From Dehalococcoidia bacterium (lineage in GTDB: Bacteria > Chloroflexota > Dehalococcoidia > UBA2979), in NCBI GenBank assembly GCA_965237865.1, contig OZ250164.1, positions 2,440,142 to 2,504,141 of the forward strand: a DNA stretch of 64,000 nucleotides, read 5' to 3'. Both the position numbers and the translations under genes were made by a program. Of this stretch, positions 53,658 to 56,057 are shown in pieces. The notes beneath the pieces were generated by a model, which worked only from the letters and a program-made list of their open reading frames with translations, had not been told where the DNA came from and searched no databases. Each line of letters starts with the position of its first letter. Within the stretch, counting starts at the first letter, position 1.

Positions 53658-54773
53658 TCAGCGCGAGTCCTCGAGGATGCGCACGACCAGCCGGATGATG
53701 CGCCAGCCGTCGCGCAGCATGTGCTCGACGTTGCCGGGGTCCGGCTCGACGTGCTGGAAGAGATCGAGGCGGTGATAGATGTCGGGCTCACGCGCCTCGG
53801 CCATCGCCCCGGACTCGGTCCAGGGGATGAACTCGTCGCTGCGGTCGTGGAGCAGGTAGAACGGGGCGCGCAGTCCGTCGATCGCGTAGCGCGGGCTCAC
53901 GGCCGCGAGGTGCGCGCGCTGCTCCGGCGGCAGCGCCTGCAGCAGCGCCTCGGCGCGAGCGAGCGACGGGCGTTGCAGCAGCTCCGCCACCGCCGACCCG
54001 CCGGCGCTCTGCGGCGTCCCGCCGGCCTCGATCGCCGCGCGCTCGGCCTCGGGCAGCCCGGCGAGCAGCGTGTTGCGCACGACGCGGCGCGCGATGCCCG
54101 CCGGCTCCCAGTCCTCGACGCCGTCCGGACCGCGGAAGCTGTATGAGGTCACGGCGGCGGCCAGCGACGCGGCGTCGTAGTAGGGCCCGAGCGCGACCAC
54201 GTAGGCGACCCGATCGGCGATCTGCGGCTGCGAGGCGGCGACGATCGCCAGCGAGCCGCCCGCGGAGAGCGCCACGTAGCCGACCCGGTCCTGACGCACC
54301 CGCGGATGCGCGGCGAGCGCCTCGAAGGCTCCGGCCAGCCTCGGGATCTCGCTGGGAAGCACAACCGCAGCGTTGAGGTCGTCGGACTCGGTGAGCAGCA
54401 CGGCGAAGCCGACGCGGGCGAGGCCGCCGGTGAGGCTCAGGACGCGCTCATCGTCCGCCGGAGCGGGATCGGCGCCGAGGACGAGGATGATCGCCGGCTG
54501 CTGGTCGTCGCCGGCCGGCAGCGTCAGCTGCCCGCGGCCGCTGCCCTCGCCGCCCCACTCGAAATCCTCGATGGTGGGCGCGTGCGTGGCCCAGGCGAGG
54601 GGCCGCACCGGCAGCTGCAGCACCACGTCGGCGCTAAAGGCGGTGGCGCGCAGGTAGGAGTGCGCCGTGGGCAATGCAGCGACGACGGCCAGCAGCACCA
54701 GCAGCGCCGCGACGGCCCTGACCCGTCGCCGCACGCTCCAGTCATCGATGCGCCCCGGATGCAGCCGGTGCAT
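53658..54773 (-). CDS. secreted/membrane-anchored alpha/beta hydrolase (dienelactone-hydrolase-like)
   Basis: N-terminal TM/signal segment AVAALLVLLAVVAALP. Nucleophile elbow ALSAGGSLA (GxSxG-like). 371 aa. Confidence 0.6.
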   Translation of the reverse strand: MHRLHPGRIDDWSVRRRVRAVAALLVLLAVVAALPTAHSYLRATAFSADVVLQLPVRPLAWATHAPTIEDFEWGGEGSGRGQLTLPAGDDQQPAIILVLGADPAPADDERVLSLTGGLARVGFAVLLTESDDLNAAVVLPSEIPRLAGAFEALAAHPRVRQDRVGYVALSAGGSLAIVAASQPQIADRVAYVVALGPYYDAASLAAAVTSYSFRGPDGVEDWEPAGIARRVVRNTLLAGLPEAERAAIEAGGTPQSAGGSAVAELLQRPSLARAEALLQALPPEQRAHLAAVSPRYAIDGLRAPFYLLHDRSDEFIPWTESGAMAEAREPDIYHRLDLFQHVEPDPGNVEHMLRDGWRIIRLVVRILEDSR

Positions 54774-54815: not shown

Positions 54816-55232
54816 CTAGCGGTGGAGCAGTTCGGCGAGGTTGACCGACGGTATGTGCATCCGCCCGAAGCCGCTGACGCCCGTGACGGACTCGATCACG
54901 CCCCGCGCAGCGCCAAACAAGATCGCCGAGCCGTTGTACTCCAGCATCCGCAGCGGGTGACCCCGATCCTCGTCACCAAGCTGAAGCTCGAACACGCCGA
55001 CGATCGTGAGGTCGATCGAGCGAGCCTCGCCCTGCGCGACTCTCAGCCTCAGGGTGACCAGGTACTCATCAGCCTCCGATTCGAGGATCTCGGGGCGCGA
55101 GACGCGCACAGTGGTATCCGGCAGATCTGCCGGAATCTCCTCGTCTTCTTCGTACTCGAGCCGCTCGATCCAGAAGCGCCGGAGGTTGAGCGCTGCCTGA
55201 CCCGCCTGACGGAGCCGAAGCTTGGGGGCCAT
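54816..55232 (-). CDS. SecB-like chaperone of a toxin-antitoxin-chaperone (TAC) system
   Basis: C-terminal ILFGAARGVIESVTGVSGFGRMHIPSVNLAEL aligns with the SecB signature [32 protein letters not shown]. 138 aa. ATG 5 nt after the higA stop. Confidence 0.75.
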   Translation of the reverse strand: MAPKLRLRQAGQAALNLRRFWIERLEYEEDEEIPADLPDTTVRVSRPEILESEADEYLVTLRLRVAQGEARSIDLTIVGVFELQLGDEDRGHPLRMLEYNGSAILFGAARGVIESVTGVSGFGRMHIPSVNLAELLHR

Positions 55233-55237
55233 CTGCG

Positions 55238-55606
55238 CTACGCGGCTGCGGCCAGCACGGGCGCCGGGGCCGTCTCATCGACACTCGTCCGGAACACGGT
55301 GACCGGGCGGCAGTCGCGGCGGGAGAGACGCCGGGCGGACCTGGCCGGCTTGAGCTGCAGATCGACGCGGCAGTCGAGGCCGATCGCCACCGCGACGATG
55401 CTCTTGAGCGTCAGGTTGTCGTTGCCGCGCAGGATCTGGCTGATGCGCGCGCGGCTCACGCCGATCTCCCGCGCGAGGTCGGCCTGCGTCATGCCCCGCT
55501 CCTCCATGCGCGCCACGATCTGCTCGCCGATGTCGATGGCGACCTTCGTGAACTCGTAGTCGGGGTCGCCCTGAAACTCGTCGATCCAGTCCTGGAGCCT
55601 CAGCAT
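55238..55606 (-). CDS. higA: HigA-like HTH (XRE) antitoxin with C-terminal chaperone-addiction (ChAD) extension
   Basis: MTQADLAREIGVSRARISQILRG HTH. About 35-aa C-terminal tail beyond the HTH domain. GAGGGGA RBS. Confidence 0.75.
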   Translation of the reverse strand: MLRLQDWIDEFQGDPDYEFTKVAIDIGEQIVARMEERGMTQADLAREIGVSRARISQILRGNDNLTLKSIVAVAIGLDCRVDLQLKPARSARRLSRRDCRPVTVFRTSVDETAPAPVLAAAA

Positions 55607-55618
55607 GTTCTCCCCTCT

Positions 55619-55912
55619 TCACTCACCGATCTCGCTCCGCACTTCCTGGTGGAGCCGCGCACCTGTGTTCAGTTCCCGCCGGGGCGTGCGGTTCGACTTC
55701 TTTGTGAAGCCGTGCAGCAGGACGATCCGGCTGCCGGAGAGATAGCACCAAAAAACCCGTTGCTGGGCCGACCTGAACTCTAGAAAGTCCTGCCCCGTGA
55801 TGGGAACGGATTTGCCCGGACTGTACAGCGGCCCGTGATCCGCGACTCTCTCGAAGTGCGCCGCGAGCCGCGCACGGTCGATATCGGGGAGCCCTTCCAG
55901 GAAGTCCGTCAC
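55619..55912 (-). CDS. higB: HigB-like toxin (Gp49/DUF891, RelE/ParE superfamily)
   Basis: RIVLLHGFTKKSNRTPRRELNTGARL matches the Gp49-like HigB C-terminal signature. Start set at GTG 55910-55912 after AGGAGTGGAGG. The ORF extends to GTG 56008. Confidence 0.65.
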   Translation of the reverse strand: MTDFLEGLPDIDRARLAAHFERVADHGPLYSPGKSVPITGQDFLEFRSAQQRVFWCYLSGSRIVLLHGFTKKSNRTPRRELNTGARLHQEVRSEIGE

Positions 55913-56000
55913 CGGACTGGCGCCTCCACTCCTTTCGTAGAGCAGTAGCGAGAAGCGTGCTCCTTCGTGGAATGGCCTCAGCGGCAATGTTAAGTCCTGA

Positions 56001-56014
56001 CTTGACACTCGTCA
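56001..56014. promoter_or_regulatory. 14-bp palindrome TTGACACTCGTCAA in the higB promoter region (candidate HigA operator, overlapping a -35-like TTGAC)
   Basis: Seen directly, upstream of the TAC operon on its coding strand. Confidence 0.4.
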
Positions 56015-56057
56015 ATCGCCGGACGGCGGCGCACCGCGCGTCGCGCGTCGCGCACCC

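Follow-up and report, generated by a model that had tools for sequence, protein, structure and literature searches.

The 64-kb window analysed here (64,000 nucleotides of contig OZ250164.1, assembly GCA_965237865.1) belongs to the chromosome of an uncultured Dehalococcoidia bacterium (Chloroflexota) and contains, on its minus strand, three tightly packed genes with the layout of a toxin-antitoxin-chaperone (TAC) operon. The first gene (55619-55987, TTG start) encodes a 122-residue toxin of the Gp49/HigB family, the second (55238-55606) a 122-residue antitoxin with an XRE-type helix-turn-helix (HTH) domain and a C-terminal extension, and the third (54816-55232) a 138-residue SecB-like chaperone of the SecB-TA/HigC type. 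The genes are separated by 12 nt (55607-55618) and 5 nt (55233-55237). These spacings and the common strand agree with the original prediction, which had been made from the DNA letters before any database search. The 5-nt gap between antitoxin and chaperone suggests that their translation is coupled. The arrangement toxin, antitoxin, chaperone is found again at 15 distinct related loci, and the order of the three genes is thus not due to chance.

The toxin open reading frame contains the segment RIVLLHGFTKKSNRTPRRE, quoted in the original prediction for a Gp49/HigB-family toxin. It matches the Pfam family Gp49 (PF05973) with 49 bits versus a gathering threshold of 23.9 (E 6.7e-13, model positions 1-87 of 90). 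Homology to the HigB toxin of Streptococcus pneumoniae (PDB 6af3) is detected at E 1.6e-4 with the single sequence and at E 5e-8 with a profile built from nine alleles; no other PDB chain was matched by the toxin profile. Both results support the family assignment. In the profile alignment to 6af3, and allowing for a 20-residue tag offset between chain and native numbering that we counted ourselves, residues R72, R77 and K96 of the toxin align with R68, R73 and K92 of S. pneumoniae HigB. Mansour et al. equated these three positions with R68, R77 and K95 of the Mycobacterium tuberculosis toxin and with K54, R61 and R81 of RelE (PMC9098466). R77, K96 and a GFTKK motif are invariant among the nine toxin alleles, while position 72 is either R or K. 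From these positions the toxin looks catalytically competent, and it is predicted to be a ribosome-dependent mRNA endonuclease of the RelE superfamily.

The antitoxin reaches 46 bits with HTH_3 (threshold 23) and also matches HTH_31, HTH_26 and HTH_37 in Pfam. Its score with the HigA equivalog model of NCBIfam (TIGR02607) is below the cutoff, with 25.9 versus 47.7 bits. It is thus an antitoxin of the XRE/HTH_3-HTH_37 type that is called HigA by partnership and gene order only. The protein can be divided into an N-terminal segment (residues 1-22), an HTH core (residues ~23-87, encoded at 55346-55540 on the minus strand) and a C-terminal extension of 35 residues (88-122). AlphaFold models the HTH helices with a confidence (pLDDT) of ~80 and gives values below 50 for residues 1-12, 89-95 and 102-122. 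The extension as a whole (pLDDT ~40-50) shows no secondary structure and is predicted by the model to be disordered. The claim of an XRE-HTH antitoxin with a tail of about 35 residues is therefore borne out, given the above-threshold HTH_3 match and the disordered tail in the model. Between alleles the HTH core is 88-95% identical, and the N-terminus and the tail are variable.

The tail carries the features expected of a chaperone-addiction domain (ChAD). Its candidate core motif, RRLSRRDCRPV, occupies residues 92-102 (55301-55333, minus strand) with C99 as the anchor. Across homologues the motif takes the form R(L/P)SRRDCRP(V/I), and the tail ends in Ala-Ala. In other alleles the cysteine column is occupied by W, Y or F (RDW, QDW, RDY). 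The anchor motif is present in all chaperone-linked alleles and in no chaperone-less allele. Its RRDCRP stretch may resemble the C-terminal tail of SecA, which is basic, contains Cys and binds SecB. The alternation of cysteine with aromatic residues in this column echoes, at the sequence level, the aromatic anchors of published ChADs, such as 108-WHRLSSYR-115 in M. tuberculosis (PMC6377645) and those of E. coli HigA (bioRxiv 10.1101/2024.02.24.581848). Among 73 parsed antitoxin homologues, the Ala-Ala terminus is found in 32 of 32 anchor-bearing ones versus 0 of 37 with a short, 23-residue tail. Terminal dipeptides of this kind have been shown to act as ClpX degrons, namely Val-Ala in M. tuberculosis HigA1 and Ala-Ala in CmdA (PMC8165232; bioRxiv 10.1101/2024.02.24.581848). 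The LAAAA end of the antitoxin (residues 118-122, 55241-55255, minus strand) is a candidate ClpX-type degron. A degron linked to the ChAD is not universal, as E. coli HigA does not rely on ClpXP.

The third protein is the most divergent of the three. Its C-terminal segment AILFGAARGVIESVTGVSGFGRMHIPSVNL aligns to E. coli SecB in the profile alignment, in agreement with the SecB signature noticed previously. Taken alone, the protein scores 20.9 bits with the Pfam SecB family (PF02556), below the threshold of 26 (E 3.5e-4, residues 55-135), and is far from the NCBIfam SecB cutoffs (21.9 versus 143 bits for TIGR00809 and 18.1 versus 102.8 bits for NF004392). HMMER searches of PDB sequences gave no match, either with the protein alone or with a profile of its 20 closest relatives. 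Of the family searches proposed in the original prediction, those with PF05973 and HTH_3 passed their thresholds, whereas the single-sequence search with SecB did not. Because of this sub-threshold score, membership in the SecB family has to be established from profile and fold evidence. A profile search of 1.84 billion representatives yielded 425 relatives at E<=1e-3, 57 of which were taken for a family profile. No fewer than 45 of these 57 relatives match Pfam SecB individually, the best with E 6.5e-15, and the profile matches SecB of E. coli (E 1.5e-11) and of Haemophilus influenzae (E 2e-11) over the full length.

The AlphaFold2 model of the chaperone (pLDDT 83.3, pTM 0.77) consists of a beta-sheet with five strand segments and of two helices, a long one after the sheet and a short one at the C-terminus. 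When this model was compared with the PDB using Foldseek, the top twelve hits were SecB proteins and Rv1957, all with probability 1.0. TM-scores were 0.65-0.75 to SecB of E. coli (1qyn, 5jtl) and H. influenzae (1fx3), and 0.64-0.71 to Rv1957 of M. tuberculosis with the ChAD peptide bound (5mtw). A SecB fold for this protein was one of the points on which the original prediction had staked itself, and it was obtained from both the model and the structural search. Identity to the solved SecB proteins is only 13-20%. The chaperone is a divergent member of the SecB family and not an export equivalog. Its ~90 N-terminal residues, which form the beta-sheet, are hypervariable, whereas conservation is high in the C-terminal helices (residues 91-138; 86% in close genomes). 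Of the acidic SecA-binding residues D20, E24 and E77 of E. coli SecB, which correspond to R24, E28 and D74 as read by eye from the profile alignment, D20 appears to be changed and the other two retained. The PADLOC model PD-T4-9_C, which we take to be that of the CmdTAC chaperone, matches the protein weakly over its full length (E 6.2e-5).

Indirect support for a link between tail and chaperone comes from the comparison of related loci. Each of the 15 distinct loci encoding an antitoxin with the anchor motif and the Ala-Ala tail also carries the chaperone gene; this holds also for L013, L017, L019 and L020, whose tails are longer or of the W type. The chaperone is encoded at none of the four short-tail loci (L012, L015, L016 and L018), all of which lie at the same chromosomal site, between a DoxX gene and the gene of a 371-residue protein. 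These four loci share 73-77% identity with the window in the toxin and 88-90% in the antitoxin core, and their 23-residue tail lacks both the anchor and the Ala-Ala end. At face value, 15 of 15 versus 0 of 4 corresponds to a Fisher p of ~3e-4, which overstates the independence of loci that are related to each other. This strict co-occurrence supports the view, put forward in the original prediction, that the extension is the chaperone-addiction segment. It also bears on another explanation, that the locus is an ordinary two-component HigBA pair lying next to a general SecB export chaperone, with an irrelevant antitoxin tail. The third protein is indeed a SecB homologue with well-conserved C-terminal helices, which speaks for such an explanation. 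But the gene is missing at the same site in sister genomes exactly where the tail is short, and a housekeeping chaperone is unlikely to be lost precisely together with the tail of an antitoxin. The substrate-binding half of the protein is moreover hypervariable and co-varies with the tail (see below), its score with the SecB equivalog model is 22 bits versus a cutoff of 143, and the 5-nt gap points to coupling with the antitoxin gene. In our alignment the D20 position is Arg (R24), as in the SecB-TA chaperone of M. tuberculosis (PMC6377645), and a second copy in another genome has its own toxin and antitoxin beside transposases. We therefore regard a general export chaperone at this place as hardly credible, and return to a chaperone dedicated to the antitoxin.

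The genome with that second copy is apparently represented by two loci, L011 (OZ253555.1) and L019 (contig of ERZ26694896), which would be two TAC copies of one genome, both outside the usual site. The L011 copy lies among three open reading frames for PIN/VapC-like proteins, and the L019 copy, with an RDW-type tail, lies between rve/Mu-type and IS110 transposases.

Comparison of the related loci further revealed that the operon is a mosaic. Based on protein identity matrices, the relatedness of the toxins is unrelated to that of the flanking genes (Spearman -0.24 and -0.08). For instance, the window and L010 share 97% identity in DoxX and only 45% in the toxin, whereas the window and L012 have flanks that are 61-71% identical and toxins that are 74% identical. 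Between L003 and L010 the DNA is 100% identical from the operator through the toxin gene into the 5' end of the antitoxin gene. Identity is then ~90% in the HTH core, drops to 50-63% from the tail to two-thirds of the way into the chaperone gene and returns to 82-98% thereafter, the flanks being only ~88-98% identical. The sequences of this pair imply a recent recombinational import of the toxin cassette between lineages. L008 and L009 show the converse pattern, and in L003 and L009 both cassettes have diverged between flanks that are 98-100% identical. Among genomes with flanks that are 93-95% identical, the cassettes average only ~61-66% identity, and in some pairs the cassettes are closer than the flanks, which suggests recent exchange. 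At amino-acid identities of 45-60%, the synonymous sites of the cassettes are saturated.

Sliding-window DNA identity places the breakpoints in the operator region, in the HTH core and in the C-terminal third of the chaperone. The identity of the tail correlates with that of the 90 N-terminal residues of the chaperone (Spearman 0.70) and not with that of the toxin (-0.09); for the toxin, the strongest correlation is with the N-terminus of the antitoxin (0.44). Given these breakpoints and correlations, two cassettes assort independently, one comprising the toxin and the antitoxin N-terminus and the other the tail and the beta-sheet half of the chaperone. The co-variation in the second cassette provides independent comparative support for an interaction between the tail and the chaperone sheet, and that in the first fits an antitoxin whose N-terminus contacts the toxin. 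It has been reported that ChADs are not conserved between systems and that a ChAD and its chaperone form a transferable and specific module (PMC5105189), and the cassette pattern matches this description.

A possible wider reading, which we put forward tentatively and to which we give less than even weight, is that of a modular and hypervariable locus of the immune type, in which the first cassette, as effector, and the second, as sensor/stability cassette, are exchanged independently at one fixed site of a Dehalococcoidia lineage. Recombination would then take place at three conserved anchors, namely the operator, the HTH core and the C-terminal helices of the chaperone. Under the same reading, the whole chaperone dependence would be gained or lost along with the tail, and the aromatic ChAD anchor would have been replaced by Cys. 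The mosaic pattern is an observation; the uncertain part is its selective cause.

The start of the toxin gene was assigned by aligning the intergenic DNA between DoxX and the toxin gene from nine loci. This region contains an essentially invariant block with the pattern TTGAC-N4/5-GTCAAG(T/G)CAGGACTTAAC, although the alleles share only 42-68% identity in the coding sequence behind it. The block is followed immediately by TTG (GTG in L009). In three loci (L005, L006 and L009) the upstream frame is disrupted by a 1-nt indel located between TAAC and this TTG, and toxin codons 2-4 (CCN CTN AGN) vary at third positions only. These three properties place the start at TTG 55987, and the DNA upstream of it is regulatory rather than coding, since the 1-nt deletion changes the frame while the DNA is otherwise identical. 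An AGGA Shine-Dalgarno sequence is found 7 nt before the TTG, and a 122-residue toxin is given by gene callers in four related loci (L013, L015, L016 and L019). Two other starts were considered and rejected. With the longest open reading frame, starting at GTG 56008 (129 residues), the 1-nt deletion of L005, L006 and L009 would shift the frame. The start called at V33 in L001 (97 residues) would exclude residues 12-32, a stretch that is conserved at the protein level and is part of the alignment to HigB 6af3.

The conserved regulatory DNA directly upstream of the toxin start (55987-56015, minus strand) reads TTGACGAGTGTCAAGTCAGGACTTAACAT, and the 27-nt motif of this region occurs only once in the window. 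The 14-bp palindrome TTGACACTCGTCAA proposed here previously is not perfect: pairing is limited to 5+5 bases at its ends (TTGAC/GTCAA), and the 4 nt between them (5 nt elsewhere) are not palindromic. That it overlaps a -35-like element, TTGACG, was correct. A second near-palindrome, GTcAAGTC-ag-GACTTaAC, overlaps the first and forms 7 of 9 pairs. Action of these inverted repeats at the RNA level is unlikely, as the AAGTC/GACTT arms are 2 nt apart, too close for a hairpin loop. A sigma70-like sequence, TTGACG-17-TAACAT (56015-55987), is the sole such site in 2 kb, where 0.1 is expected. Its -10-like hexamer TAACAT ends on the first base of the toxin TTG, and both features are conserved across loci. 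Read in a simple sense, the sigma70-like promoter and the TTG start cannot both be correctly assigned. The region 55987-56015 is a candidate HigA operator and/or promoter, and the association of invariant upstream DNA with a near-invariant HTH core (88-95%) would fit an operator-repressor pair. At 56029-56053, between the DoxX stop and the operator block, lies a GC-rich run that is both tandemly repeated and palindromic, GCGCGAC GCGCGAC GCGCG; it is not kept at other loci and may be a DoxX 3' hairpin.

Apparent frameshifts of the toxin gene were found at two related loci. In L002 (4231-4621) one extra G is present in a G-run relative to L003 and L004, and in L017 (2647-2977) the toxin is recovered as two tblastn pieces and was called at only 72 residues. 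These could be toxin pseudogenes with antitoxin and chaperone kept, or homopolymer errors of long-read assemblies; the extra G of L002 is probably an assembly error. A more general loss of the toxin in L002-L004, where no toxin had been called, was discarded, as the toxin is present in all three and intact in L003 and L004. The frameshifts could be taken to mean that the module has decayed or been domesticated, with an inactive toxin and with the HTH protein and the chaperone regulating neighbouring genes such as DoxX or the hydrolase-like gene of the 371-residue protein. The fixed chromosomal position across the lineage and the invariant HTH core and operator would be in line with such a role. 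However, the toxin open reading frame is intact in the window and at most loci, its catalytic positions and GFTKK motif are invariant, its variation is of the coding type with changes at third positions, and exchange keeps the toxin together with the antitoxin N-terminus, as expected if neutralisation matters. The frameshifts themselves come from long-read assemblies, and that of L002 lies in a G-run. Domestication is thus improbable in our opinion, and we retain an active toxin as the preferred reading.

Of the first 11 related loci, 10 have the operon between the DoxX gene and that of the 371-residue protein. Upstream of the site are putative menaquinone genes (ECH, UbiA and MR_MLE/MenC-type), and downstream are ABM, NAPRTase and isochorismatase genes. 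The 371-residue protein, which is conserved, is encoded at 53658-54773 on the minus strand, 42 nt downstream of the chaperone gene. It has an N-terminal hydrophobic segment and a sub-threshold match to BD-FAE, of the alpha/beta-hydrolase type (19 versus 26.8 bits); no Pfam family is on record for it at any locus. Its gene flanks the site with or without the chaperone and is therefore not part of the TAC. Elsewhere in the window, an IS110-family transposase is encoded at 19093-20430 on the minus strand (DEDD_Tnp_IS110, E 2.3e-38, plus Transposase_20). An Rfam match to Ms_AS-4, an actinobacterial sRNA, lies antisense inside this open reading frame (19411-19492, plus strand; 62.9 bits versus a threshold of 50), which suggests that this family follows IS110 elements rather than being a lineage-specific RNA.

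The original prediction had also pointed to a defence or mobile context, and in the window this does not hold, as the neighbours are housekeeping genes (DoxX, menaquinone and NAD salvage). PADLOC and family annotation recognised no defence gene adjacent to the operon. No relatives were found in IMG/VR viral contigs, the plasmid collection gave only a distant SecB of Cupriavidus, and the 64-kb window contains no tRNA gene. For these reasons a mobile-element origin is disfavoured here, although the related copies L011 and L019 do sit among PIN toxins and transposases, respectively. Yet in relatives the DoxX/371-residue-protein site behaves as a small variable hotspot. At five related loci, a convergent gene for a 127-residue ThsB-type TIR protein (PF08937) is located between the toxin-antitoxin or TAC module and the gene of the 371-residue protein. 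It lies on the minus strand in locus orientation, at 3377-3760 in L012, 3904-4287 in L013, 3375-3758 in L015, 3352-3735 in L016 and 2904-3287 in L018. The window lacks this gene, and no ThsA-like partner is present among the called genes of the five TIR loci.

Another reading is that the same parts serve in abortive infection against phages. The variable beta-sheet surface of the chaperone would then be the sensor, for which a structural protein of the phage competes with the tail; the antitoxin would be released and degraded, and the toxin unleashed. Such a course has been shown for E. coli HigBAC. The reading refines the role given to the operon and leaves its parts as they are. It would account for the two hypervariable cassettes with their signs of recent exchange, for the TIR gene at the same site in five relatives and for the weak PD-T4-9_C match of the chaperone, and there is precedent for it (bioRxiv 10.1101/2024.02.24.581848; PMC11618068). 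On the other hand, the housekeeping surroundings of the window and the near absence of relatives from viral and plasmid collections do not favour it. The diversity could also be explained by competition between addiction modules or by old balanced alleles, and the lineage has neither a cultured phage nor a cultured host. We consider an anti-phage role conceivable, yet would not bet on it. If defence, stress response and addiction are weighed against each other, the hypervariable cassettes and the TIR gene beside the module in relatives incline towards defence.

Taken together, the data make it likely that the locus is a functional TAC of the HigBA type with the architecture described above. 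Its mechanism would be that of characterised TACs (PMC5105189, PMC6377645, PMC8165232, bioRxiv 10.1101/2024.02.24.581848), from which, by analogy, we infer toxicity, neutralisation, chaperone dependence, proteolysis and autoregulation. The first gene product, judging from its family and conserved catalytic positions, would be a Gp49/HigB RNase that cuts mRNA on the ribosome. The N-terminus of the antitoxin probably neutralises the toxin, and the HTH of the antitoxin probably acts as a repressor of the operon by binding the invariant inverted repeats directly in front of it. The disordered 35-residue tail would combine a chaperone-addiction motif, RRLSRRD-C-RPV, with a terminal Ala-Ala degron. 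The third gene product, a dedicated SecB-like chaperone presumably acting as a tetramer, would bind this tail via its beta-sheet surface, and so keep the antitoxin soluble and shielded from degradation of the ClpXP type. If the chaperone were titrated or lost, the antitoxin would be destroyed or aggregate, and the toxin would be freed.

Several points weigh against this interpretation. The co-occurrence counts are not phylogenetically independent, as most loci represent one syntenic lineage. The tail motif of the window is basic with a Cys and is devoid of the aromatic pattern that is important in the M. tuberculosis and E. coli ChADs. The chaperone alone is sub-threshold for Pfam SecB, far under the NCBIfam cutoffs and without a PDB sequence match. 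The -10 element abuts the TTG; either the toxin cistron is not transcribed from this site, or the picture of its start or transcript is incomplete. The frameshifts in L002 and L017 may mean that the toxin is dispensable, unless they are assembly errors.

No other case of a chaperone built into a toxin-antitoxin switch is understood as well as the TACs, for which sensing of phage proteins was recently demonstrated. With the present locus their range comes to include uncultured Chloroflexota, in a form whose chaperone is too divergent for the Pfam threshold. Near relatives with chaperone-dependent and chaperone-free alleles at the same site constitute a natural experiment, and the natural recombinants give comparative support for the ChAD and its chaperone as an autonomous, transferable specificity module. 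Both offer matched sequence sets for studying chaperone-client specificity, even though no new mechanism is revealed. The variability of ChADs was already known; the shuffling of cassettes and the chaperone-free sister alleles are interesting extras. If the modular-locus reading were true, the site would mirror in nature what was engineered as ChAD/chaperone swaps and hybrid TACs, and would point to selection, for example by phages, on chaperone-client specificity.

Among known systems, the TAC of M. tuberculosis (HigB1 Rv1955, HigA1 Rv1956, SecB-TA Rv1957) has the same gene order, and the original comparison with it holds for order, families and SecB fold. Its toxin is likewise Gp49-like with a RelE fold, and the equivalents of its K95, R77 and R68 are conserved here. 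Both antitoxins are of the XRE-HTH type with a disordered C-terminal extension that ends in a small aliphatic dipeptide. Both chaperones have the SecB fold (TM-score 0.64-0.71 to 5mtw) and, in our alignment, an Arg at the SecA-contact D20 position (R24 here, R32 in Rv1957). The chaperones differ in that they share no HMMER-detectable sequence similarity, with 13-16% identity in structural alignment. The tail has 35 residues versus ~46 in M. tuberculosis, the basic Cys motif RRLSRRDCRPV stands in place of two W-containing repeats (WHRLSSYR and WARHISVR), the terminus is Ala-Ala versus Val-Ala, and the host belongs to Chloroflexota and not to Actinobacteria. A short ChAD is also known from the HigBA TAC of Geobacter lovleyi (Glov_3492/3491 with SecB-TA; Bordes et al. 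2016), with 30 residues versus 35 here. The HigBA TACs described by Bordes et al. have a cognate, specific SecB-like chaperone and a transferable ChAD/chaperone module (PMC5105189). Their modularity was established with engineered chimeras, whereas natural recombinants at one locus are seen here; this comparison was made from the published description.

With E. coli HigBAC and CmdTAC (PD-T4-9), the operon shares a SecB-like chaperone guarding a ChAD-tagged antitoxin, and the chaperone may be the variable sensor in each. CmdA has an Ala-Ala ClpX degron, and the window chaperone weakly matches the PD-T4-9_C model. The ChAD of E. coli HigA is different, with 96 residues and four aromatic anchors. 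CmdT is an ADP-ribosyltransferase whereas the toxin of the window is a Gp49 protein, and of the CmdTAC parts only the chaperone model matches, weakly. Phage defence has been shown for E. coli HigBAC and CmdTAC, while the operon of the window is known here from its sequence. The two-component HigBA of S. pneumoniae (6af3/6af4) has the toxin family and the toxin-first order in common with it. The chaperone-less alleles of L012, L015, L016 and L018 are of this Gp49/HigB-HigA kind, from which the window differs by the extra tail of its antitoxin and the third gene of its operon. As far as can be told from sequence, the locus would work like the TACs of M. tuberculosis, the HigBA-type systems of Bordes et al. 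and E. coli HigBAC, and it is set apart from them by its Chloroflexota lineage, the divergence of its chaperone, its basic Cys-anchored motif and its fixed chromosomal site.

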